Shown here: positions 554 through 12,133 of the stretch, piece after piece
How the letters are laid out: the number at the start of each line of letters is the position of its first letter
Numbering within the stretch: the stretch's first letter is position 1
Source of the DNA: an uncultured archaeon
Lineage (GTDB): Archaea > Iainarchaeota > Iainarchaeia > Iainarchaeales > CSSED10-239
Reading direction: 5' to 3'
DNA: 12,775 bases
Assembly: GCA_964586355.1 (NCBI GenBank)
Contig: CAZPGO010000020.1
Span: 1 to 12,775 of the forward strand
The notes under the pieces: generated by a model
What the model saw: only the letters and a program-made list of their open reading frames with translations
What the model was told of the DNA's origin: nothing
Databases searched by the model: none
Program-made: the position numbers and the translations under genes

Positions 554-1681
554 TTAATTTTCTAAAAAATAATTCAGATCTTTATCATTATGATCTTTAT
601 TATATACTTTTAAATATAATAGATCTACAATTCTATTTGAGTTTTCTCCGTTTGAACCAAATTCAATCTTTCTTAAAATATCTGGAATAATGGTGGCATT
701 TTTACCATATCCGGGAGATTCTGATGTCGGACCATAATTTCTACTATATATTCCATCTATTGTATCGTTATATTTTGAATTAGAAAAATTTTTAATAAAA
801 ATAATGTCTGTGTTTTTATCAACACCATGATCTCCAATATATTTACCAATTTTTAAATAATTTATCTCATTATAATTTAAATCATAAATGTGCCCTATTC
901 TCTGATCTATAATACTTTGTTTAAAATACAAATGATTTTGATCCTTATATAAATATAAATAATTAGTATCATCTCCAAATCTAAAAATTTCACCCACATA
1001 ATCAATAGTTAGATCATTAAAATATAATCCCAAAAATATTGTATAATTTTGATCTTCTGATAATTTAACAATCCCTTTTGTGTTTTTTGTAATTGTTAAT
1101 GCCATTTGATCATTAATTTTAGATTTAGATAATATTTTAGAATAAACTAAAGCATCATTTCTACAATTAGAATAATCTAATAAATAATAATAAGATGAAA
1201 ATCCAGTTGATGTGGTTCTTTCAACATTAAGATCTAATATTTTATTATCACACAAACCACTTTTATATAAATTAATTAATTCATTAAACCCACTATTATA
1301 ATCTGAAATATTTTTATTAACATCCACAGCAAAATTATAATAATTTAATTTACAATCATTATTTTCTTTTGTTACTTGATCTAAATTAGATTTGATTTTA
1401 TCACAATCAACTTTTGCAGATAATAATGAATTATTTAAATTTAAATATTCTTCGTTAGCGGTTTTTAAATTTTTTGACAATTCTAAATTTCTATTATTTA
1501 CTGAATTATTTTCTACAATAGAAATAAATAATAAAAAACTTAAAATTAATATCGCAATTGTTGAGCCAGCTAATCTTTTAGATTTAATATTAGCTCCACA
1601 TTTAGAACAATGCCTTGCATTAATTCTATTTTCGTGCCCACAACTGGAACATATTTTTTTATCTTTTAAACTTTTTGTCAC
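554..1681 (-). CDS. Zinc-ribbon single-pass membrane protein with a Cys-containing stalk and a beta-rich (possibly LamG/ConA-like) C-terminal domain; function unknown
   Basis: 375-aa ORF. GTG start at 1681 overlaps the upstream stop as GTGA, and a GGTGA SD at 1688..1692 sits 6 nt upstream. CxxCG-x9-CxxCG zinc ribbon at aa 11-28 (nt 1598..1651). Hydrophobic helix LAGSTIAILILSFLLFISIV at aa 37-56 (nt 1514..1573). A short coiled-coil-like stretch follows, then a Y/N/I-rich region predicted to be beta-rich. The C-terminal ...IVDLLYLKVYNKDHNDKDL resembles the end of LamG-type jelly rolls; this is a weak by-eye impression only. Confidence 0.75.
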   Translation of the reverse strand: MTKSLKDKKICSSCGHENRINARHCSKCGANIKSKRLAGSTIAILILSFLLFISIVENNSVNNRNLELSKNLKTANEEYLNLNNSLLSAKVDCDKIKSNLDQVTKENNDCKLNYYNFAVDVNKNISDYNSGFNELINLYKSGLCDNKILDLNVERTTSTGFSSYYYLLDYSNCRNDALVYSKILSKSKINDQMALTITKNTKGIVKLSEDQNYTIFLGLYFNDLTIDYVGEIFRFGDDTNYLYLYKDQNHLYFKQSIIDQRIGHIYDLNYNEINYLKIGKYIGDHGVDKNTDIIFIKNFSNSKYNDTIDGIYSRNYGPTSESPGYGKNATIIPDILRKIEFGSNGENSNRIVDLLYLKVYNKDHNDKDLNYFLEN

Positions 1682-3432
1682 AATTTTTCACCACAACAAT
1701 CACAATAATCTGATTTTGTTTTTAATAAAAGACCACACTTGTTACAATATTTTGAATTTTTTAAATTAGTTTTATCAAAATCACCATATTCTTCTGCTAA
1801 CTCTAATACTTGCTTAGACTTGCGTTCTGTATTCAATAAATATTTAATATTTTTTAATTTGTTAGACAATTCTGATATGTTTCCTTCTAAAGAAAGCATA
1901 ATTGATTTATCTTTTTCTAATTTGTTTTCTAAATCAGATATAATTTTTATTTGATCTTTATGTTTAGTTTCTAATAACTGAAATTTATCAAAAAGAATTT
2001 TCTTGCTTTTTACTAAATCAGACAATTCAGATTTTAAATCAATTAACTGCTTTTCTAATTTTTCTTTTTGATTAGATTGCTCAGCAAGTTCTTTTTTAGA
2101 ATCTGCAATTTCAGCAGCATATTTTGATACTTTGCCAGATAAATCACTTATTTGATTAGTTAAATCAATTATTTTATTTTCTTTATGTGATAATCTTAAA
2201 TTTTGTTCTTTTGAGATTTTAATATATTTTTCTAATTCTCGCTTTATTCTTTCTTGTTCCTGAATTTTTCTTTTTTCTATATTCACACTTGCATTAAAAT
2301 ATTCTGAAAATTTGTCTTCATCAAAATTTTTTTCAATTTTATCAAAACCAGGACGATCTTTTACTAAAGTAATTTTTAATTTTTGCGCTTTATTTGTAGA
2401 TGAAAATAAAGAATAACCTAAACCTGGGGATAACAAATTTCTAAAATTAGATTTATCTATTTGAAAAATTTTAGATAATGCAATAGCGTCTTTATCAGAA
2501 TTTGCTCTAAAACCAAGATATGCACCAGTATTTGCTCTTATAATTTCAGAAAAATCATCAGCACTTTGAGAAGCTAAAATTATACCTAGTCCGTATTTTC
2601 TAGATTCTCGAAGTATTTTATCAATAGGAGAATCTTCATATGCTAACCTGTGTGCTTCATCAATTACACAATATAATTCTAAATCAGATTTCCCTTTTAT
2701 ATATAAGTGATTAATTAATTTGCGTAATATTATTTCTGCAATTAAAGACTTTACCTCGTCTGTTGGATAATCGTTTAATTTTAATACGCTTGTTTTAGTT
2801 AAAATTTCTTTAAAAGGAATTGTTGTTTCGTTAGCATTAACAAATAAGGGTGTATCAAATATCACTCCAATTTTAGAAATTAATTTTTCAACATCAGGAT
2901 TAATTTTAGGCTCTTTTTCTCCTTTCGGGTCAAAAATCATTTTTTGAGAAAGCATAATTTTTTTAAATACAATAAATGGGAGTAATTGTACTGGTTTTTC
3001 ATTTTTTTGATGTAGATCTATAATTTCAGATTGAACATAAAATTCTTTTATAGATTCTCTAATAATACTAAATTGTATATCCCCTAAATGAAATATGTTC
3101 TTAAACATTTGACTAACTCTATAAGCAACATCTATTGGTCTTTCATTTGGTTGAATTTCAAGAGGATGAATTGTTGCACCGGTTTTTTCGAAATCAATTA
3201 TATTGTCTGACAATTGTTTGAAATCATCGTGAAAATCGATAACTAACGTATTAATTTTATTTTTACTTAATTCGAAAATAATTGATTTAATGGTTTCTGT
3301 TTTTCCAGAACCAGAACCCCCAATTAAAAGTAAATGTGGGTTGTGTTCATTCTGTGGAACCCAACAAATGTTAGAGTCTATTTCTGTATTTCCTGAATAT
3401 CCTTTACCTAAAAATATTTCTAATTTTTGCAA
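1678..3432 (-). CDS. HerA/FtsK-like (DUF87-type) P-loop ATPase with a ~180-aa C-terminal coiled coil and a terminal zinc ribbon
   Basis: 584-aa ORF. TTG start at 3432 with an AGGTGA SD at 3437..3442 (4-nt spacer). Walker A LLLIGGSGSGKT at aa 35-45 (GGSGSGKT = nt 3298..3321). Walker B LYCVIDEAHRL (VIDEAH = nt 2650..2667, aa 256-261). The block RESRKYGLGIILASQSADDF is typical of HerA/FtsK/VirB4-clade ATPases. Residues ~370-555 are heptad-like and K/E/L-rich. The C-terminus YCNKCG-x10-CDCCG forms a zinc ribbon (Cys codons span nt 1693..1746). Confidence 0.85.
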   Translation of the reverse strand: MQKLEIFLGKGYSGNTEIDSNICWVPQNEHNPHLLLIGGSGSGKTETIKSIIFELSKNKINTLVIDFHDDFKQLSDNIIDFEKTGATIHPLEIQPNERPIDVAYRVSQMFKNIFHLGDIQFSIIRESIKEFYVQSEIIDLHQKNEKPVQLLPFIVFKKIMLSQKMIFDPKGEKEPKINPDVEKLISKIGVIFDTPLFVNANETTIPFKEILTKTSVLKLNDYPTDEVKSLIAEIILRKLINHLYIKGKSDLELYCVIDEAHRLAYEDSPIDKILRESRKYGLGIILASQSADDFSEIIRANTGAYLGFRANSDKDAIALSKIFQIDKSNFRNLLSPGLGYSLFSSTNKAQKLKITLVKDRPGFDKIEKNFDEDKFSEYFNASVNIEKRKIQEQERIKRELEKYIKISKEQNLRLSHKENKIIDLTNQISDLSGKVSKYAAEIADSKKELAEQSNQKEKLEKQLIDLKSELSDLVKSKKILFDKFQLLETKHKDQIKIISDLENKLEKDKSIMLSLEGNISELSNKLKNIKYLLNTERKSKQVLELAEEYGDFDKTNLKNSKYCNKCGLLLKTKSDYCDCCGEKL

Positions 3433-3505: not shown

Positions 3506-4435
3506 TTAAATTAATTTATCTAATTTAAAATGTAATTTATAAGTATAAAATGATATGTTCTTTGTAACACTTAGTGCGCGTCTTATTCTTATATCGTCTT
3601 CAAATGCAACAATTATACCTTTTACTATTTGACCTTTTTCTAATAGTTCATCTTGTACATAGCCCATATATCTTTGTATTTGACCTACAACAATGTCGCT
3701 TGCTCTACCTTTTTTTAATTCTATTACTAATAGTTCTTTCTTATCTCTGCTTATTGCTAATATGTCAATATTACCTGTGTCACTGGGGTATTGTTGTCCA
3801 ACAATTTCCCCATCTTCTGTAAATATATCATATTCTCTTCCTAGTTCTGTTTTTGACCAATTTTTTATTAAAAATTCTTCTAAATGTTGCTCTAAAGCAA
3901 AAACACTAGCATCTTCGATTGTTTCATCTGTTGAAATTATTTTTGGAGGTTTACATCCAGACATTAATGATTCTATTTCAGATTCATATTTTGAAATATT
4001 ACTTACTGTTCCTATAGATCCTGTTGAATTTTTAAGTTCTTGACTCATTTCATCTCTATTAATTGTTTTTAAATACCATTTCACTGCTCTTCTATGAGGC
4101 AATTGTTGATCTGCTTTATATTCATAATTACTTACAACTTCTCCCACATAATAATTACCAATCCCATCTGGACATAAAACAACGTCTCCAATTTGTATTC
4201 CTTTAATTATTGTCCAAAGCATCCCACAAGCAAGTCCTGCTGATATTTTTATTTTATCTGGATTTTGTTCTAAAAATACAGGTATAAATTCTTTATTAAA
4301 ATCTCTCCAATTATCTACTAAATGATTAGATAAATCTTTAGATTTTATTAACTCTGCACCAATATAATTTCCTTTATATGATTCTTCAGCAAATACACTT
4401 TTTTTACCTAACATTATTCTATAATATTTTTTCAT
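3506..4435 (-). CDS. NucS/DUF91-like PD-(D/E)xK endonuclease domain (C-terminal) fused to an unassigned ~165-aa N-terminal domain
   Basis: 309-aa ORF with an ATG at 4435 and a GAGGGT SD-like site at 4446..4451. The C-terminal half reads LEQHLEEFLIKNWSKTELGREYDIFTEDGEIVGQQYPSDTGNIDILAISRDKKELLVIELKKGRASDIVVGQIQRYMGYV. This is the D...E-x-K core (IDIL / IELK) followed by the GQ(I/L)xRYMG helix characteristic of NucS C-terminal/DUF91 nucleases. The N-terminal half (YYRIMLGKKS...GLACGMLWTIIKGIQIGDVVLCPDG...LPHRRAVKW) recalls a conserved bacterial family that I cannot name with certainty. Confidence 0.75.
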   Translation of the reverse strand: MKKYYRIMLGKKSVFAEESYKGNYIGAELIKSKDLSNHLVDNWRDFNKEFIPVFLEQNPDKIKISAGLACGMLWTIIKGIQIGDVVLCPDGIGNYYVGEVVSNYEYKADQQLPHRRAVKWYLKTINRDEMSQELKNSTGSIGTVSNISKYESEIESLMSGCKPPKIISTDETIEDASVFALEQHLEEFLIKNWSKTELGREYDIFTEDGEIVGQQYPSDTGNIDILAISRDKKELLVIELKKGRASDIVVGQIQRYMGYVQDELLEKGQIVKGIIVAFEDDIRIRRALSVTKNISFYTYKLHFKLDKLI

Positions 4436-4471: not shown

Positions 4472-5215
4472 CTAATCAATTATTTTATGTAATATCTCTT
4501 TAAAGTCAATATATTTATTCTGATTATATAATTCTTCAATTTCTTTAAGACTAAACGGTTTAGTTTCATTATTAATATTAATTTTAGGCTTTAATTTATC
4601 ATTCTTAACTATATAATATGGACTAGCACTAAATTTAAATAAAGGAAATATATAGTTAAAAATTTCGTCATCTTCTGATTTCTTTGTTTCAAAAGTTTCT
4701 TTAAATTTTTTATTTACATTATTATAGCTTTCAAATATATAAAATATCTTTTTCTTGTCTATTTTAAATTCATTTGATAATTCTTCAACTCTATTAAAAT
4801 AATTTTTATTTTCAATTAGTTTACGATCCCAACCAATAGTGGTTTTTATTTCTATAATTGCTTGATTTTTACCATCTTTTTTAATCAAAATATCTGGTCG
4901 CAATTTATTTTGTTTTTCTTCTAATATAATCTCATATTCTTCTGGCAAAACATTTTTTAAATAAAAAGCGATTATATCTTGAAATATATCAGATAAAGAA
5001 GAATATATTTTTCTTTTAAACTCTATTTTATGTCTCCATTGTGCCAATCTTATTGAAAATAAATCTAAATATATTAATTTAGAAATGTCCTCTGTTTCAG
5101 AAATTTTATTTTTTTCTAGAAAAGCATCTAGAAACAAAGCATATTTGTCTCCAATTTTTGATTTAAACACAATCATTTCCCTTTTTATTTTCTTTTTTTG
5201 GTAATTCATTAACAT
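4472..5215 (-). CDS. Small PD-(D/E)xK (restriction-endonuclease-fold) protein; start uncertain (ATG at 5215, 5209 or 5176)
   Basis: 247-aa ORF. The core EEYEIILEE...LRPDILIKKDGKNQAIIEIKT (nt 4841..4900) gives a textbook E...PD...(E)xK arrangement (PD at aa 107-108, EIK about 14 aa later). It overlaps the upstream gene by 53 nt if the start is 5215, or by 14 nt if the start is 5176. No strong SD supports any of the three candidate starts. Confidence 0.6.
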   Translation of the reverse strand: MLMNYQKKKIKREMIVFKSKIGDKYALFLDAFLEKNKISETEDISKLIYLDLFSIRLAQWRHKIEFKRKIYSSLSDIFQDIIAFYLKNVLPEEYEIILEEKQNKLRPDILIKKDGKNQAIIEIKTTIGWDRKLIENKNYFNRVEELSNEFKIDKKKIFYIFESYNNVNKKFKETFETKKSEDDEIFNYIFPLFKFSASPYYIVKNDKLKPKININNETKPFSLKEIEELYNQNKYIDFKEILHKIID

Positions 5216-5891
5216 AATTTATTATTAAATTATCAATTAATTTTGGTTTAGGCATGATAATTTGTTTTCTTTCTAAATTTTTATAATATTTGTCTATATC
5301 GTTTTTTTTATTATTAAGTAATTCTTTGCCTAAATTTAATACTTTTAAAAAAGATCGACATTGCTTATCAGATCGCCCATAAAATGTTATTATTTTTGAA
5401 GTGTAAGCATTATCCATTGGAATAATTAAATCTGGTAATAAAAAATGAAGTGTTTTTGAAATTGAAACAAATTTAGATTCTGATTTTTTCTCTTGCTTAT
5501 TAACTGTTACAAAAGATAGATTTGTAAATAATTGATTAAACTTCTTACCAATCTCTGAGTTTTCTGATATTTCTTCTTTTATATTTTCTAATTTTTTAAT
5601 TTTCCAAAAATATTCTAAATTTGAGCTTTGACTTTGTAATTGTTTTTTAAAATCTTCAAATGAAACTAACCAACTTTGCCCCCTATTTAATCTCCAAGCA
5701 ATTAAACAAGCATAACATCTTTCTAGAAATTGATCATTATCTAGTTTATCTGATATTGACAGATCTTTTGATTCTAATATTTTTATATAAAAATATTCTG
5801 ATGCAGGAGAAAACATTTCTTTTTCATCTATTGCTAAATATTTAGAAATATCTTTATTACAAAAAATTTTGAATTCTTCTAAATTAGTCAT
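5163..5891 (-). CDS. Hypothetical, mostly alpha-helical protein (~243 aa); family not recognised, with a weak resemblance to HhH-GPD/OGG-fold proteins
   Basis: The ORF track gives 5163..5933, but that uses a TTG start lying inside the helicase gene. The first ATG (5891, MTNLEEFKIF...) lies 7 nt after the helicase stop (5899) and is preferred. There is no nucleotide-binding or nuclease motif. The segment SKTLHFLLPDLIIPMDNAYTSKI resembles the (K)xLHFxxP-x-hhPhxD stretch of OGG-fold/HhH-GPD-like proteins. This comparison is from memory and unverified. Confidence 0.6.
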   Translation of the reverse strand: MTNLEEFKIFCNKDISKYLAIDEKEMFSPASEYFYIKILESKDLSISDKLDNDQFLERCYACLIAWRLNRGQSWLVSFEDFKKQLQSQSSNLEYFWKIKKLENIKEEISENSEIGKKFNQLFTNLSFVTVNKQEKKSESKFVSISKTLHFLLPDLIIPMDNAYTSKIITFYGRSDKQCRSFLKVLNLGKELLNNKKNDIDKYYKNLERKQIIMPKPKLIDNLIINYVNELPKKENKKGNDCV

Positions 5892-5898
5892 ATTTTTC

Positions 5899-8598
5899 TC
5901 ACATCCCTTTTTCTTTCCTATATTGCTCAACAATAGATCTCGTGATCGGATTGTGATCTGTTGGCTTGATCTTTTCTAGATCTTTAATAAAAGTTTCTGG
6001 ATCGATCTTCCAGTCTACAATGATCTGAATGTGCTTGGTGATAGTGCCTATGGCACTTGATCTTGGCTTGGAGTCGTCAAGAGTCTTATCAATGGTACCA
6101 TCATTAATTGTTTTTTTTAAAGAGACATACCCAATAGCTACTTTAATCTTTTCTTTTGGAATAGAGTGAGTGTAAGAAAAAATATTCTTATAAAGCTCTA
6201 GTTGCTGACGATGCGCTCCTGCTGTTTTTGTATTCTTGTCTGTCTTCCAATCTACTATTAAGTATTCATCTGTTTCTGGGTTTCTAAAGATTGCGTCTAT
6301 CTTTCCAGTAAAAGTGAGATCGCTTGGAATTGTGGTTACAACATAAAGTGGAACCTCTCTAAAACCAAGCTCTGCTGCTATAACTTCTGAATATGTGGAT
6401 TTTATCTCAGAGATAAGGTATTTAGAGTTGTCTAAGATTTCGTGTGTTTCTTCATCAAGAATGGATAGATCTATTGGTTGATCTTTTAATAATTGCTCAA
6501 TAAGATTGTGAATGTCTGATCCTCTTGTTAGTGCTTTAGAAAATTGTGTTAACTTTAGTATTCTTTGTGTTAAATATTTCTCTGGATCTGTCTCTATTCC
6601 TGAATAGGAAAGATGATTAAGGTTTTCAAAATGTCTTGTAATATAGTCAATTATCCAAGAAGTATTATTTTCTAATTGTTTTTTTGCATTTTCATAATCT
6701 TTATTTACAAATAAGGAAAAAGCTTTTTTGTTAATATCTGAAAAATCAATAACACTTTCTTCTGGAACAATATTTTCTAAAAGAACTGAGTATTCATTTT
6801 TATAGTCTGGAGCTTTAGAAGTTAAAATATATAATTCTTCTTTAGCTCTAGTTACTGCAACAAAATCAATTCTGTTAGGTTCTTCTTCCAGTTCTTCTTT
6901 TGGATTTTTATTTAGACTATTTAAGATGGCAATAGTGATTGCATCTTGAAAGTTTTCATTATCATTGGTTTTACTTGGAACATAAATTACTTTTTCAAAT
7001 TGTCTACCTTTTGATTTATGAACTGTTGTTAAAATAACTTTATTTTCTGTTTTAATCTCTTCAGCTAATTGTTCAGCAGACAACAAAAAATTACAAAGAT
7101 TTTCTAGAGTTTTGTTTTCTAGAAGATCAAGGGCTTCAATTGTTGCTCTTTGCATGTTTATACAGGAGAGTGTGTAATCTCTTCCATAGGAAACAGCAAC
7201 AGGAAGTATGTTGTTTTTAAAAATGTTGTCTAAATCATTAATGTTACTAATAGATTCTCTTAATTCCTTATATTTTGGATATTTATCATAAACCTCTTCA
7301 AGAGTTAATTTATTATTTTCAGCAAGTTCAAAAGCATCTTGTAAGCAAATAGGAAAAAATGGTGTAAACATAGATGCTTTTATTAAATTTATATCTTTAC
7401 TTAATAGTCCTTTTAAAAAACTAATAATATTTTCCTTAGCTTCATCACTTGAAGTTAAATATGTTGAAGAAAAAGATATTCCATTTATCTCTAGCTCTTT
7501 AGCAAACTTATATAGTTGTGAATTTTTTCTTGCAATTATTGCAATTTCTTTATTTTCCTTCATTTGTTGTTCTTTAATAAAATAGGCAATAAAAGAGGGA
7601 ACATTATCCTTTACTGCAATAATTGATGGTTTTTCTCCTTTTTTAGCTGTTGCACTTTTTAGATCTTTAATTTCTTCAAGATCTGATTTATCTGCAGTCT
7701 TAGAAGAAAACAATTCTTTAGAATAATTTAAAATTTCATCTGTACTTCTAAAATTATCAGAAAGAACAAACTCTTTACCTGAATTAAACTTTAAAAAATT
7801 ACCTATAGATCCACCTTGAAAACCAAAAATTGCTTGTTTTTTATCTCCAACCACAACAAATTTTTCACAAACAGACAAAGCAATATCTGCTTCCATATCA
7901 TTAACGTCTTGTAGTTCATCTACTAATACCCATTTGAATTTTGGTTTATTTTTAATTTCTAAAAAATTTATTAAAATATCTGTATAATCTAATCCCTTTT
8001 TTTTCTTAAAATTTTCATATCTTTCAAAGATCTTAATAAAGTGTTCTAAATAAGACTCTAATTGCTCTTTATCATAGGTTTTAAATTCAGTAATATGTGT
8101 TTTAACATCATCTATATTTATTTTAGAAGGAATTATACCAAAACTTTTTAAATATCTAATTGCATTTTCAATTTTAGGAACAATTGTCTCTAATAAATAA
8201 TTATCTCCATAGTTTAGTACTTGGTTTTCAATCAAGTAAGAATAAATCTCATATCTTAAGAGATTAGAGGAAATAATTTCATTATCTTCTAGATTATCCA
8301 AAGAAAAAGCATGAAATGTTTGAATATTAATCTGAGATAAATCAATTTCTAGATTTTCAGTTTCTACAAGATTTAAAATTCTTTCTTGCATTTCCCCACA
8401 GGCTTTTTCAGTAAAGGTTAGACAAAGGATGTCTTTTGGAGAAATTCCTTGATATAATAAATAAACATATTTGTATGCAAGAAGTTTAGTTTTACCAGTT
8501 CCTGGGTTAGCTATAACAATTGTAGAATCATTATGTTTAATTGCATTCTTTTTTTCCTGATTAAGATCAGCCATTTCTATAAACTCAATTTCATTCAT
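5899..8598 (-). CDS. UvrD/Rep/PcrA-type SF1 helicase fused to a C-terminal RecB-family PD-(D/E)xK nuclease domain
   Basis: 899-aa ORF. Walker A ANPGTGKT (nt 8488..8511). Motif II VLVDELQD (nt 7906..7929). Further helicase motifs: VVGDKKQAIFGFQGG, DNFRS, TTVHKSKGRQFEKVIYV and VAVTRAKEELYIL. The C-terminal nuclease reads GSDIHNLIE...GKIDAIF (D768, nt 6295..6297)...YLIVDWKT (D783/K785, nt 6241..6255)...QQLELY. No Cys cluster is present, so it is not a Cas4/AddB-type Fe-S nuclease. The ATG at 8598 overlaps the Bro-N stop as ATGA; M9 (8574) is an alternative start. Confidence 0.9.
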   Translation of the reverse strand: MNEIEFIEMADLNQEKKNAIKHNDSTIVIANPGTGKTKLLAYKYVYLLYQGISPKDILCLTFTEKACGEMQERILNLVETENLEIDLSQINIQTFHAFSLDNLEDNEIISSNLLRYEIYSYLIENQVLNYGDNYLLETIVPKIENAIRYLKSFGIIPSKINIDDVKTHITEFKTYDKEQLESYLEHFIKIFERYENFKKKKGLDYTDILINFLEIKNKPKFKWVLVDELQDVNDMEADIALSVCEKFVVVGDKKQAIFGFQGGSIGNFLKFNSGKEFVLSDNFRSTDEILNYSKELFSSKTADKSDLEEIKDLKSATAKKGEKPSIIAVKDNVPSFIAYFIKEQQMKENKEIAIIARKNSQLYKFAKELEINGISFSSTYLTSSDEAKENIISFLKGLLSKDINLIKASMFTPFFPICLQDAFELAENNKLTLEEVYDKYPKYKELRESISNINDLDNIFKNNILPVAVSYGRDYTLSCINMQRATIEALDLLENKTLENLCNFLLSAEQLAEEIKTENKVILTTVHKSKGRQFEKVIYVPSKTNDNENFQDAITIAILNSLNKNPKEELEEEPNRIDFVAVTRAKEELYILTSKAPDYKNEYSVLLENIVPEESVIDFSDINKKAFSLFVNKDYENAKKQLENNTSWIIDYITRHFENLNHLSYSGIETDPEKYLTQRILKLTQFSKALTRGSDIHNLIEQLLKDQPIDLSILDEETHEILDNSKYLISEIKSTYSEVIAAELGFREVPLYVVTTIPSDLTFTGKIDAIFRNPETDEYLIVDWKTDKNTKTAGAHRQQLELYKNIFSYTHSIPKEKIKVAIGYVSLKKTINDGTIDKTLDDSKPRSSAIGTITKHIQIIVDWKIDPETFIKDLEKIKPTDHNPITRSIVEQYRKEKGM

Positions 8599-9467
8599 TT
8601 TTTTTCTTTTTTATAAATTATTTTCTTATTTTTGGGAGATTTTAATAATCTTTTTTTCTTTTCAGAAATTGTTAAATAATTATCTTTTGTAGATATTTTT
8701 CTGCCAAGGCCCTTTTCAATTTCTTTACGTGCATTGCCTGCAGCAGTTCCACCAATTTCAGCAACTTTTTTCAGTTTTTTAAATTCAGCTTCTTTTTCTT
8801 TAATAGTTAATTCCTTAGTTACACTTTCTCCAAGCATTGTAAATATTAATTCCATATCATCCATATGATCTATTAAGTTTTCTTTTTTTAAACCTTTAAA
8901 TTTTTTATATTCAGAGGGGGTCATATTAAACGTAGCTTTTGAGATTTCAGCAGTTAATATTGAAAAGTCTTTTTCTTGCTTAACTCCTTTTTTTTTCCAC
9001 TCGTCTGTTAATTCATCTCTAACTATTATTCCTCTTATTCTTTTTTCAATCCAAGCTTCAGAATACCCTTTTGATATATATAGCTCTCTCATTCTTGTTT
9101 GTGCAAGTTCTGGGTTTTCGATCTCTTGAACTCTTTGATAACCAACATTTGCTAACCATTGTTTAAATGGTTCTGCTTTTGGAGAAGGTATTGATTGAAT
9201 CAAACGAAACAACCATTTAACATTTAAACAATCAGTACCATAATATTTTCCATCTATTGCAGGCATTTTAAGTTGGTTACAAAATGTAACCAACTCACTA
9301 CCTTCTTCTTTTAATCTAAATTTTAAAACTTTCCAATAATTTCTGGAATCTTGACTATCTGTTAAAACACTAACAACATCAATAACAGAAAACCACCATT
9401 CGTTATTAAACCAAACTCTTCTTATTTTTTTATCTTGAAAAACAATTAGTCCTTTTTCTTTTTCCAT
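8595..9467 (-). CDS. Bro-N domain protein with a DinD-like C-terminal region
   Basis: The ORF track's 9497 start is a TTG inside the upstream gene. The ATG at 9467 (MEKEKGLIVF...) lies 8 nt after that gene's stop, with an AGTGA SD-like site ~9 nt upstream. N-terminal region: FQDKKIRRVWFNNEWWFSVIDVVSVLTDS...NYWKVLKFRLKEEG...LFRLIQSIPSPKAEPFKQWLA, the Bro-N signature. C-terminal region: ELTDEWKKKG...FKGLKKENLIDHMDDMELIF...GGTAAGNARKEIE, which resembles E. coli DinD-like proteins. Confidence 0.85.
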   Translation of the reverse strand: MEKEKGLIVFQDKKIRRVWFNNEWWFSVIDVVSVLTDSQDSRNYWKVLKFRLKEEGSELVTFCNQLKMPAIDGKYYGTDCLNVKWLFRLIQSIPSPKAEPFKQWLANVGYQRVQEIENPELAQTRMRELYISKGYSEAWIEKRIRGIIVRDELTDEWKKKGVKQEKDFSILTAEISKATFNMTPSEYKKFKGLKKENLIDHMDDMELIFTMLGESVTKELTIKEKEAEFKKLKKVAEIGGTAAGNARKEIEKGLGRKISTKDNYLTISEKKKRLLKSPKNKKIIYKKEKK

Positions 9468-9475
9468 ACTTTTTT

Positions 9476-10846
9476 TCACTTTTTTATAATTTCCCAATGC
9501 CCACCTTTATCAGGACCAACTCTTTTTATTTTGCCTTCTTTCTTTAATTTAGAAAGATTATATTTTATACCGTCTTCTGTTATATTACCTATTAATGCTG
9601 TTAATTTTTTTATAGAATATGCTGAATTTTCGGTAAGTAAATCTATTATTTTCTGGGTAGTTTTCTGGGTAGTTTTCTGGGTAGTTTCTATCGTGTTATT
9701 ATTTTGAGCGTCATCTATTGATTCACTAGGTGTTTTCTGTAATGGCTTATAAAAAATAACATCAAACCAATTTTTACTTATATTAAATTTTAATTTTAAA
9801 TTATATTCTTTCATAGCCTGCTTAATTCTAGTTATTCCTGATCCTACTCTTTCCCCTAAATCAAGTCTTAACATTAAATCAAAAAGAAGAGGATTTCTGG
9901 GCATGCTTTTCTTATCTATGTCCTTTTTAGATAATCCTGATACTAATCCTCCAGGATTTGTTATTTCAACTCTATCATAAAATATATCAACTTGTATTTG
10001 ACCGTTAGAAAAATAATCTCTATGAGCAATAGCATTAATTAATGCTTCTCTTATTGCTTTTTCTGGAATTTCTAATTTATTAATTCGATTTTTTCCTTCT
10101 ATAATATAATTTGTATTTAATCTTGAACAAATATAATCAAAAGCATTATCAAAATTAGAGTATAGATCTGCATCAAAGTCTTTTTTATCTAAAATATCTA
10201 ATTTATTTCTACCTTTGTATAATATACAAGTAATTCTGGCATTTATAAAAAACTTAGTTATTCTGTGGCAAAATATTAAAACTCCTGCATTTTTTAGATT
10301 ATTTCCATCTAATAACGATAAATTTCTTAATAAATCTAATTGTGATAAATTATTAGTAATATTTGCTTTTTTTAGAAAAAATTCATAAACTGATTTATTA
10401 AAATCATCGTTTAAATCAAAATTAAAATTTGGTTTTTCATCAAATAATACTTGTCTTTCATTTTTAAAAAAATCTCTTAATTCATTTCTATTCATTTTTT
10501 GAGAAGTTGCACCTATTCTTATATAGTATTGCCCAGAATGTGCATAAGGTTTATCTTCTCCTTCAGGAACAGTAATCACAGTTAGTTGATTATCTATTTG
10601 TTTTATAAAAACAATAATAGAAGGATCTATATGTCTAGCAATATCTTGAATTTTAGAAGCAATAGAATTATTTAGCTTAAATCCTTTAACTTCTCCATTA
10701 TCTTTAACACCTAAAATTATCTTTCCACCAGAAGAATTTGCAAAAGCGCAAATGGTTTTACCAATAGTATCAGTATATGACTCTTTAAACTCAAGAGTGT
10801 ACCCCTCTCCAACTTTAATTAAATCTAAAACTTCTGATCTATTCAT
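9476..10846 (-). CDS. AlbA_2 (Schlafen-like, 'divergent AAA') + HATPase_c_4 + C-terminal winged-helix protein; putative DNA-binding or sensor regulator
   Basis: 456-aa ORF with an ATG at 10846 and an AAGGAAA site upstream. N-terminal region: EGYTLEFKES...ICAFANSSGGKIILGVKDNGEVKG (AlbA_2 signature). Middle: REALINAIAHRDY...ITNPGG (HATPase_c_4-like). C-terminal region: IIDLLTENSAYSIKKLTALIGNITEDGIKYNLSKLKKEGKIKRVGPDKGGHWEI (wHTH). The linker contains TTQKTTQKTTQK, encoded by a 12-bp tandem repeat. Confidence 0.85.
   Translation of the reverse strand: MNRSEVLDLIKVGEGYTLEFKESYTDTIGKTICAFANSSGGKIILGVKDNGEVKGFKLNNSIASKIQDIARHIDPSIIVFIKQIDNQLTVITVPEGEDKPYAHSGQYYIRIGATSQKMNRNELRDFFKNERQVLFDEKPNFNFDLNDDFNKSVYEFFLKKANITNNLSQLDLLRNLSLLDGNNLKNAGVLIFCHRITKFFINARITCILYKGRNKLDILDKKDFDADLYSNFDNAFDYICSRLNTNYIIEGKNRINKLEIPEKAIREALINAIAHRDYFSNGQIQVDIFYDRVEITNPGGLVSGLSKKDIDKKSMPRNPLLFDLMLRLDLGERVGSGITRIKQAMKEYNLKLKFNISKNWFDVIFYKPLQKTPSESIDDAQNNNTIETTQKTTQKTTQKIIDLLTENSAYSIKKLTALIGNITEDGIKYNLSKLKKEGKIKRVGPDKGGHWEIIKK
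9649..9688. repeat. Perfect 12-bp tandem repeat ttttctgggtag, 3 full copies plus 4 nt, in frame within the AlbA_2-family gene
   Basis: Direct reading: 9649..9660, 9661..9672 and 9673..9684 are identical, and 9685..9688 (tttc) starts a fourth copy. It encodes (T)TQK x3 in the linker before the wHTH domain. Confidence 0.95.
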
Positions 10847-10918: not shown

Positions 10919-12133
10919 TTAATTTTCTGGTTCAATTATAGATATTAAATAATTGTCTAATAATTTTTTTGTTGCTATTTTAATATCTTCAACAGATAAT
11001 TTTTCTAAATCTTTTATTCTATTTTCATTAGCAATTTTATATTCAAAGAATTCATTTAATACTTCTTTGTCTGCTAACAAAAAAGGATATTGATCTGTTT
11101 TTTTATAACTTTTTAAACATTTTTTTTTAATAAAATTAAATTCCTTTTTATCAATAGTTAATAATTTATTTAATTCTTCAAAAATTGAATTTATTGCAAG
11201 ATCAGTATTATTAGAGTCAATTGTTGTTTTTATTAAAAACAAACCAGTTTCTTGAAATGGTACATTTACTGAATAAATGTTATAAGTTAATCCTAGTTTT
11301 TGTCTAACAGCATCATTTAAGTTAATAGATTTTCCTAAACTTAATAACAAATCAATTGTTTCAAAAGCAATATATTCTTGATCTGTATATTTAGGAGATA
11401 AAAATCCTATTCCTAAATGGTTTTTTGTGATGCCGTTCTTCTTTTTTTTAATTTTTAATTTATTATTAAAATCAGGTATTGTTATTTTGCTATCTTTTAG
11501 ATCTCCAATAGGCAAAGTAAAATATTTTTCTATTAATGGAAATGGATCTTCAATATTTCCAATAACTACTATAATCATATTATTTGCAACATAATATTTT
11601 TCATAATGTTTTACTAGTTGTTCTCTAGTAAAAGATTTAATATTCTCTTCAGTTCCAATAAGTGGCAATTCTAAAGAATGTCCTTTAAAAATATTTGAAT
11701 AAATTGTTTTGTTTAATAGATCATCTGGATCATCATCATATCTTTTATATTCATCCAATATAACATTTCTTTCTCTTTCTATTTCTTCTATATCAAAATT
11801 AGGATTACAAATAATATCCATAAATTTTTTCAAAAGTTCTTCAAAATATCTTTTTTTTGAAGAAATAAAATGAACAGTTCTTTTATGGGTTGTAATTGCA
11901 TTAAAATTACCCTCTATTGATCTAAGATATTCTCTTATTTCTTTTTGAGTATAGTTTTTTGATCCTTGCCAAATTAAATGTTCTACAAAATGAGTTATGC
12001 CATTATTTTCTTTGGTTTCATTCTGGGAGCCTACTTTAATATGTGCTTGTATTGACATTCTAGAAGATTTATTTTTAACATGGATAATTTTCAATCCATT
12101 GGGTAGGATTTTTCTTATAATTTCAGATCTCAT
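10919..12133 (-). CDS. M16-family (pitrilysin/insulinase-like) zinc metallopeptidase
   Basis: 404-aa ORF. The inverted zincin motif HxxEH appears as HFVEH at aa 48-52 (nt 11978..11992), within GITHFVEHLIWQGS. Downstream EGNFNAITTHKRT is typical of M16 N-terminal domains. The two-lobed length is appropriate for the family. A GTGAT SD-like site lies upstream of the ATG at 12133. Confidence 0.85.
   Translation of the reverse strand: MRSEIIRKILPNGLKIIHVKNKSSRMSIQAHIKVGSQNETKENNGITHFVEHLIWQGSKNYTQKEIREYLRSIEGNFNAITTHKRTVHFISSKKRYFEELLKKFMDIICNPNFDIEEIERERNVILDEYKRYDDDPDDLLNKTIYSNIFKGHSLELPLIGTEENIKSFTREQLVKHYEKYYVANNMIIVVIGNIEDPFPLIEKYFTLPIGDLKDSKITIPDFNNKLKIKKKKNGITKNHLGIGFLSPKYTDQEYIAFETIDLLLSLGKSINLNDAVRQKLGLTYNIYSVNVPFQETGLFLIKTTIDSNNTDLAINSIFEELNKLLTIDKKEFNFIKKKCLKSYKKTDQYPFLLADKEVLNEFFEYKIANENRIKDLEKLSVEDIKIATKKLLDNYLISIIEPEN

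Follow-up and report, generated by a model that had tools for sequence, protein, structure and literature searches.

The stretch of DNA considered here (the window: 12,775 nucleotides (nt), positions 1 to 12,775 of contig CAZPGO010000020.1 in assembly GCA_964586355.1, from an uncultured archaeon of the Iainarchaeales) carries nine long open reading frames, three of which encode, in close succession, a helicase-nuclease fusion (Hel), an all-alpha protein (M) and a small nuclease (S). It had been suggested, in a preliminary description made from the sequence, that these three genes could form a system of nucleic-acid degradation. Comparison with related loci favours another reading, to which we give a probability of about 60%, in which the window would be a stretch of a hypervariable defence-island mosaic, with Hel as its stable resident and M and S as separate cargo genes. 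The three genes are as follows, with lengths in amino acids (aa).

5899-8598, minus strand: Hel, UvrD helicase joined to a RecB-type PD-(D/E)xK nuclease, 899 aa, ATG to TGA
5163-5891, minus strand: M, all-alpha protein, 242 aa, ATG at 5891 and TAA at 5163
4472-5176, minus strand: S, predicted small PD-(D/E)xK nuclease, about 232-234 aa, starting at ATG 5176 or GTG 5170

The gene calls and spacings that had been given for Hel, M and S were confirmed by open reading frame analysis. The stop codon of Hel occupies positions 5899-5901 and the ATG of M is located 7 nt beyond it, at 5891, with MTNLEEF as the common start of M and its homologues. Three starts are possible for S, ATG 5215, ATG 5176 and GTG 5170, with overlaps with M of 53, 14 and 8 nt, respectively, and the start at 5176 or 5170 is favoured by the alignment of homologues and by database gene calls of 232 aa. 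All nine genes of the window lie on the minus strand, in the transcription order M16 peptidase, Schlafen-type protein, Bro-N protein, Hel, M, S, a nuclease matching the PADLOC candidate PDC-S02, a HerA/DndH-like ATPase and a Zn-ribbon protein, and among the eight of them that span 10846 to 554 every gap measures between -14 and +73 nt. Since all eight genes are equally packed, this spacing reflects a compact genome and sets apart no three-gene cassette. The tight coupling from which co-translation of the three genes had been deduced is real but not specific to them; Hel, M and S are probably co-transcribed with their neighbours, judging from the compactness of the genome alone. In compact genomes, tight spacing alone cannot delimit a system, and the apparent cassette dissolves when relatives are compared. 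The window is very AT-rich (G+C about 25%), and neither per-gene GC nor GC at third codon positions shows a clear compositional break separating M and S. A scan for sigma-70 promoters and terminators returned 48 sites against 49.6 expected and is uninformative; its model does not apply to archaea.

Conservation and surroundings of Hel

Hel matches the Pfam families UvrD-helicase (PF00580, E = 2.5e-42), UvrD_C (PF13361, E = 3.9e-17) and PDDEXK_1 (PF12705, E = 1.3e-10), and is of the superfamily 1A (SF1A) UvrD type, with a RecB/Cas4-like PD-(D/E)xK nuclease at its C-terminus. The Walker A residue K36, the DELQD motif at residues 227-231, D768, D783 and K785 are all present. In an alignment of 20 orthologues, with a mean column identity of 62%, DELQD, D768, D783, K785, Q799 and Y803 are invariant, while K36 occurs in 90% or more of the sequences, and the catalytic residues D768, K785 and K36 named in the preliminary description are thus both present and conserved. 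The same description had counted two PD-(D/E)xK nucleases and one SF1 motor among the three products, which is borne out by the Pfam matches of Hel and by the conserved motif and Foldseek matches of S. A search of 5.8 billion proteins, in which 8000 candidates were scored, returned 709 homologues of Hel at E <= 1e-30. Among the 120 matches listed, the first eight are 50-100% identical to Hel and the other 112 are 45-50% identical, with lengths of 867-916 aa; these 112 are full-length and have the same domains as Hel. The organisms named for the homologues belong to Nanoarchaeota, Woesearchaeota, Micrarchaeota, Nanobdellota and Thermoplasmatota, and these names suggest that the window, too, probably comes from a DPANN archaeon. 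On the strength of these comparisons, Hel is best read as a widely conserved gene of DPANN-type archaea that anchors a changing defence island.

Fusions of UvrD with a Cas4-like nuclease (PF12705) have been described as a monophyletic group found in bacteria and mesophilic archaea, whose genes either stand alone or occur in non-conserved defence contexts that include Type III restriction-modification (R-M), Dcm/Vsr, WYL and Schlafen-helix-turn-helix (HTH) genes, and they have been predicted to play an ancillary part in repair and several defence pathways by unwinding and cutting DNA at specific sites (Hudaiberdiev et al., 2017; PMC5704561). Hel would fit this class in both architecture and context, as it likewise joins an N-terminal UvrD SF1 helicase to a C-terminal PF12705 nuclease and likewise lies in a non-conserved defence setting, with Schlafen-HTH and R-M genes among its neighbours; the window differs from the contexts reported in that both Type III R-M and Dcm/Vsr genes are missing from it. 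Hel adds a member to an already described class, and that it anchors a hotspot of defence genes agrees with the view, put forward earlier, that fusions of this kind take part in several pathways. While Cas4 proper and AddB carry a four-cysteine Fe-S cluster, there is no cysteine in residues 600-899 of Hel, so its nuclease domain has no such cluster. Hel is like AddA and RecB in that its SF1A motor is joined to a RecB-type nuclease with D...DxK...QxxxY motifs at the C-terminus, and it probably degrades DNA from the ends, as they do. It is much shorter at 899 aa, and its NCBIfam scores fall far below the respective equivalog cut-offs (TIGR02784, 99 against about 861 bits; PRK13909, 95 against 650; RecB, 36 against 1697). 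No AddB, RecC or RecD partner is found in the window, and M and S match no such family. Hidden Markov models (HMMs) of GajB from the Gabija system match Hel at 1.6e-44 in PADLOC, over the generic UvrD core only, and none of the nine window proteins matches the ATPase-TOPRIM protein GajA in that database. To our knowledge GajB has no fused nuclease, unlike Hel. The locus is therefore neither Gabija nor AddAB/RecBCD, in agreement with the preliminary description.

The surroundings of Hel were compared in seven sampled contexts, including that of the window, and they differ from one genome to the next. In L085, where Hel is 89% identical, the order is Cas4-Cas1-Cas2, M16, RhuM, Hel, GmrSD, an MmeI-like methylase and PLD/SNF2, with the RhuM gene in the position taken by the Bro-N gene of the window. 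In L086 (79%), the M16 gene and Hel are followed by a 151-aa protein of unrecognised type, a 383-aa protein, Cas12a and Cas4-Cas1-Cas2. In L001 (66%), M16, Schlafen and Bro-N genes and two further genes precede Hel, and M, a 321-aa protein and more genes come after it. Among the more distant relatives, L087 (50%) has GmrSD before Hel and a Dcm/Eco57I-type methylase farther along; L088 (46%) has two unrecognised genes, Hel, a 92-aa gene and a DUF6308 gene beside type IV secretion system (T4SS) and integrase genes; and L089 (46%) has an S24 (LexA-like) peptidase gene upstream of Hel in otherwise housekeeping surroundings. The M16 genes of L001, L085 and L086 are orthologous to that of the window (tblastn identity 39-48%), and in these four related genomes, the window included, Hel lies near the orthologous M16 gene with downstream genes that differ in each. 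By tblastn, M and S are not present in L085-L089. The idea of a dedicated three-gene system fails on both of the patterns that the preliminary description had itself named as refuting it: Hel is a conserved gene kept with changing downstream genes, and M and S occur only sporadically beside it. The three-gene 'system' is no conserved entity. What stands of the proposed helicase-nuclease system of DNA degradation is its defence-type setting, given the PDC-S13, PDC-S02, Schlafen/AlbA_2-HTH and HerA/DndH-like genes that flank the three.

Further features of these contexts were recorded. The Cas4-Cas1-Cas2 modules near Hel lie at L085:1-4131 and L086:6765-12096, and Cas12a (Cpf1) is additionally present in L086. 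The run at L088:3680-9633 consists of five same-strand genes (403 aa, 367 aa, Hel, 92 aa, DUF6308) with T4SS pilin/TraC-like, N6_N4 methylase and integrase neighbours, and is probably part of an integrated conjugative element. A coiled-coil protein of 375-383 aa lies downstream of Hel both at L001:9725-10852 and at L086:5595-6746, with 66% mutual identity; its sequence is suggestive of RmuC, with what may be a D...DAK nuclease motif, and it is not in the part of the island covered by the window. The identity to the window is consistently higher for Hel than for M16, at 89 against 48% in L085, 79 against 42% in L086 and 66 against 39% in L001, a gap that may mean that lineages have exchanged Hel or the island, or that the two genes are under very different constraints.

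The high conservation of Hel, its widespread orthologues and its stable position beside M16 would also be expected if it were purely a housekeeping enzyme of double-strand-break repair in DPANN archaea that sits beside an integration hotspot and has no part in defence, and the context of L089, with its LexA-like peptidase gene, points the same way. We consider this very improbable, as in six of the seven sampled contexts Hel is flanked directly, on either side, by genes of defence or of mobile elements, the fusion class has been linked to R-M and Dcm/Vsr loci (PMC5704561), and Hel is far more conserved than the M16 gene that flanks it.

Family and contexts of M

M is the most novel element among the genes of the window, having neither a family nor a structural match. 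It matches nothing in the Pfam, NCBIfam, PHROGs and PADLOC HMM libraries, which upholds the earlier statement that the middle protein is of no recognised family. Its AlphaFold2 (AF2) model is all-alpha and confident (mean predicted local distance difference test score (pLDDT) 92.3), and a Foldseek search with this model gave no match in PDB or BFVD (best E about 1, template modelling (TM) score at most about 0.24), while a sequence-profile search against PDB chains found nothing. There are 76 close homologues, and a profile search of 1.84 billion representatives brought the family to 1517 clusters at 50% identity (E <= 1e-3), occurring in archaea and bacteria. Invariant residues include K146, H149, P153, P158, D160, P216, K217 and D220, and D154 is shared by 90% or more of the sequences. 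The conserved K/H/D/D/K/D residues point to an active site or a ligand pocket.

A glycosylase-like role for M had been put forward, and the motif SKTLHFLLPDLxxPID did resemble the HhH-GPD pattern; neither Pfam nor Foldseek confirmed this. An assignment of M to the HhH-GPD-type DNA glycosylases was rejected, with no Pfam match and a best Foldseek PDB match at E 1.1 and TM <= 0.22, and the glycosylase proposal finds no support in a confident model that has no PDB match.

It is probable, from profile comparison, that M is a distant relative of DUF6308. A broad M profile built from 174 sequences matches the DUF6308 protein of L088 with 20.8 bits (E 2e-8 to 2e-7) over 141 residues, and two motifs are in register between the families, AW-x-M followed by SK-x-L-x4-P-x-L-x-P. 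Comparison by hhalign gave E values of 0.0014-0.02 with low probability only, and none of 50 M members matches the Pfam DUF6308 model (PF19827), even at E <= 1. DUF6308 is itself uncharacterised, and a literature search found no mention of it. A 223-aa gene that follows S in L035 has a similar ASKYLHFHVPIFPIYD motif and was tried as an M homologue; it was left unused at an hhalign E of 0.0015 with a probability of 16% and HMM E values of 0.07-0.9. Fusions occur in the M-family proteins P0264, P0283, P0302, P0355 and L013:7314-8534: some carry Zn ribbons and DUF7669, at either end, and one carries DUF4268, which is usually found in the Type IV restriction enzymes of the GmrSD kind (PMC4619093).

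The genomic contexts of M were scanned in one genome per GTDB species, which gave 26 loci from very diverse archaea and bacteria. No Hel orthologue was found in any of the 26. In a Nitrospira metagenome-assembled genome, M lies within a Type I R-M operon in the order hsdR-M-hsdM (L016:4419-8845), and in an uncultured archaeon it lies within a Type III R-M operon in the order Mod(N6_N4)-M-Res (L029:6298-10843); both operons are complete, and the embedded M genes are set off by gaps of 1-2 nt or an overlap of 4 nt. Elsewhere, a PDDEXK_1 gene directly precedes M with no gap (L007), an Mrr gene precedes it (L014), a DUF2779 gene follows it (L011), PLD and Type IIG genes lie near it (L006) or a WYL regulator adjoins it (L025). 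In L023, the order is N6-MTase, UvrD, ExoVII/HRDC, M and an HSDR_N nuclease; the UvrD, two genes upstream of M, has no nuclease domain. In about half of the loci, M is solitary or lies amid housekeeping genes. Searches of IMG/VR viral contigs and PLSDB plasmids gave no matches to M or S. From these contexts, M is best read as an independently mobile defence-island gene, separate from Hel.

The anticodon nuclease PrrC of the EcoprrI locus is an example of a gene embedded in an R-M operon, as the M homologues of L016 and L029 likewise are. M differs from PrrC and RloC in that it has no sequence or fold similarity to them, and neither ABC-ATPase nor HEPN motifs were detected in it. As a family of about 1,500 clusters with a confident model and no structural relative, found repeatedly within R-M operons of Types I and III or beside solo nucleases, M is the main positive by-product of the analysis.

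The small nuclease S and its partners

S has no match in Pfam. Its invariant residues in 36 homologues, counted from ATG 5176, are Q53/D54, E73, D82 and E96-x-K98 (Q66, D67, E86, D95, E109 and K111 in alignment numbering), and its AF2 model has a pLDDT of 90.6. The best Foldseek PDB matches of this model are all PD-(D/E)xK proteins, namely EndoMS/NucS, BbvCI, SfsA and PfoI, and they are weak (E 0.015-0.1, probability 0.25-0.9). Profile and structure searches with both small products, which the preliminary description had suggested, thus gave no match for M and weak PD-(D/E)xK matches for S. The conserved motif and the model together make S best read as a stand-alone PD-(D/E)xK endonuclease of the HsdR-N/NucS-like type, predicted to be Mg-dependent. 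It differs from the nuclease of a classical R-M system in that no cognate methyltransferase is adjacent. Close homologues number 38, the nearest named source being 'Candidatus ainarchaeum'.

A metagenome scan for S yielded 48 loci. The commonest neighbour of S is a DUF2779 gene, which is found in at least eight distinct loci immediately upstream or downstream of S and often overlapping it. DUF2779 proteins have been predicted to be fusions of a solo-Cas4 nuclease with an RNase H-like 3'-5' exonuclease (PMC13621843; PMC3985635). They are like Hel in pairing a nuclease of the Cas4/RecB type with another module that processes nucleic acids, but they have no helicase, and no DUF2779 gene is present in the window; they were considered as relatives of the C-terminus of Hel and set aside for lack of similarity. 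Loci with adjoining S and DUF2779 genes include L030:6001-8117, L031/L043, L041/L042, L050, L078, L079 and L081, often beside Type I R-M genes. The pair is a candidate for an uncharacterised defence pair, and its recurrence makes it a reasonable choice for the discovery of defence systems.

PDC-S02-like nucleases neighbour S in the window, L037, L038, L039 and L041; the order S then PDC-S02 is kept in L037 and L038, and in L039 a PDC-S02-like gene of 26% identity precedes S. Other neighbours of S are HsdR (L074), a WYL regulator (L072) and AIPR (L058). In L035, S adjoins a 1070-aa UvrD + PDDEXK_1 helicase on a conjugative-like element, where a 308-aa protein was also compared with PDC-S02 and showed no similarity. 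On a 1-Mb metagenome contig (L064:4342-10679), a DUF2779 gene (638 aa), an unrecognised 232-aa gene and S, overlapping by 4 nt each, are followed about 80 nt past S by a gene for a 968-aa UvrD helicase with Top1-type Zn ribbons, in an apparent four-gene operon. S, like M, is best read from such contexts as an independently mobile island gene, separate from Hel.

The only loci with both M and S are the window and its close relative L037, which has the order M-S-PDC-S02 at 62% and 65% identity. This conserved order, the overlap of 8-14 nt between the stop of M and the start of S, and the lack of a methyltransferase in the window that could shield the host from S would suit a self-contained two-gene unit of the toxin/immunity or nuclease/regulator kind, in which M would restrain or direct S, and Hel would be unrelated. 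Such a unit is quite improbable, however, as no M gene occurs at the other S loci whose flanks could be read, roughly 28 in number, and no S gene at any of the 26 M genome loci; moreover, the related locus L038 has S and PDC-S02 with no M, and S partners DUF2779 far more often.

Several observations weigh against the reading of the window as a mosaic with Hel as its stable resident. Hel is far better conserved than M16 and may have been exchanged between lineages instead of being strictly vertical. There are also signs of a looser link among the genes: Hel followed by M is kept in two relatives that are 66% identical (the window and L001), though the third gene has changed; in L088, a DUF6308 gene, related to M, is the second gene after the 46%-identical Hel; other UvrD-type helicases adjoin S in L035 and L064; and M-S-PDC-S02 is kept in L037. 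The changed third gene of L001 encodes a 321-aa protein that is non-homologous to S, and it was discarded as an S homologue, with no similarity found; it carries a TDIE...IIEAKKGW motif with a weak PDDEXK_4 match and is possibly a PD-(D/E)xK protein. A 252-aa gene of L011 was likewise ruled out as an S homologue.

A modular system could account for such links, in which a UvrD-type helicase, with or without a fused nuclease, would work with a protein of the M/DUF6308 superfamily and a swappable small PD-(D/E)xK endonuclease; M, as sensor or adaptor, would license the endonuclease to act, after which the target would be destroyed by the helicase-nuclease. Hel-M-S in the window, Hel-M with a different PD-(D/E)xK-like protein in L001 and the Hel, 92-aa gene and DUF6308 order of L088 would be variants of one arrangement, as would the UvrD, M and HSDR_N series of L023; the pairs of M with PDDEXK_1 in L007 and with DUF2779 in L011, and the apparent operons that join S to a UvrD helicase in L035 and L064, would be partial versions of it. 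We regard this, the main alternative, as unlikely, though less so than a purely housekeeping Hel or a two-gene unit of M and S, since the Hel orthologues of 89% and 79% identity (L085 and L086) are without M and S, nucleases and helicases are missing beside M in about half of its loci, and S accompanies M only in the window and L037; in addition, the partners are non-homologous and their order is variable, as expected from mere co-residence in defence islands. It is a similarly tentative, and rather doubtful, proposal that M and DUF6308 form a new all-alpha superfamily with a fold unseen in PDB, which would serve as sensor, adaptor or second-line effector in an undescribed modular defence system, with the window as one instance.

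If the window is instead a stretch of defence-island mosaic, as we prefer, Hel would stay beside the M16 gene while the genes on either side turn over. From what is known of their families, the island endonucleases (S and the Mrr-like PDC-S02) would nick or cut foreign, possibly modified, DNA, and Hel would load at the breaks, translocate 3'->5' with ATP and degrade the DNA by means of its C-terminal nuclease, in a mode resembling a one-polypeptide AddA/RecB. M may be an accessory sensor, a regulator or a second-line effector of nuclease-based restriction, by analogy with R-M-embedded genes such as prrC.

Remaining genes of the window

The other genes of the window, upstream and downstream of the three, are as follows.

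10919-12133, minus strand: M16 family peptidase (Pfam Peptidase_M16 and Peptidase_M16_C), the conserved flank
9476-10846, minus strand: Schlafen AlbA_2 with HATPase_c_4 and a C-terminal HTH (Pfam, 1e-23 and 1e-20)
8595-9467, minus strand: Bro-N domain protein (Pfam Bro-N, 2e-12; PADLOC candidate PDC-S13, 3e-116)
3506-4435, minus strand: Mrr/NucS_C-like nuclease (PADLOC candidate PDC-S02, 4e-159; Pfam NucS_C, 1e-7)
1678-3432, minus strand: HerA/FtsK-type ATPase with a coiled coil and a Zn ribbon (PADLOC DndH, 5e-31, and mad8, 2e-22; Pfam DUF87 and TrwB)
554-1681, minus strand: Zn-ribbon protein of 375 aa with an N-terminal ribbon (Zn_Ribbon_1), overlapping the 3' end of the ATPase gene by 4 nt

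Scans with Pfam, PADLOC and NCBIfam found no methyltransferase domain in the nine window proteins; there are no cas genes in the window, and the tRNA and Rfam scans gave no match. The stop of the Bro-N gene and the start of Hel overlap by 4 nt. The product of 3506-4435 aligns over nearly its full length with PDC-S02, which is a single-gene candidate in PADLOC. The ATPase encoded at 1678-3432 resembles the C-terminus of DndH and mad8 of the MADS system, with a long coiled coil and a terminal Zn ribbon, and the gene pair at 554-3432 may be another island module or a piece of a DNA-transfer apparatus. Within the Schlafen/HTH gene, positions 9649-9687 hold a perfect 12-nt tandem repeat (TTTTCTGGGTAG, 3.2 copies), which on the coding strand gives the peptide repeat TTQKTTQKTTQK just ahead of the C-terminal HTH.

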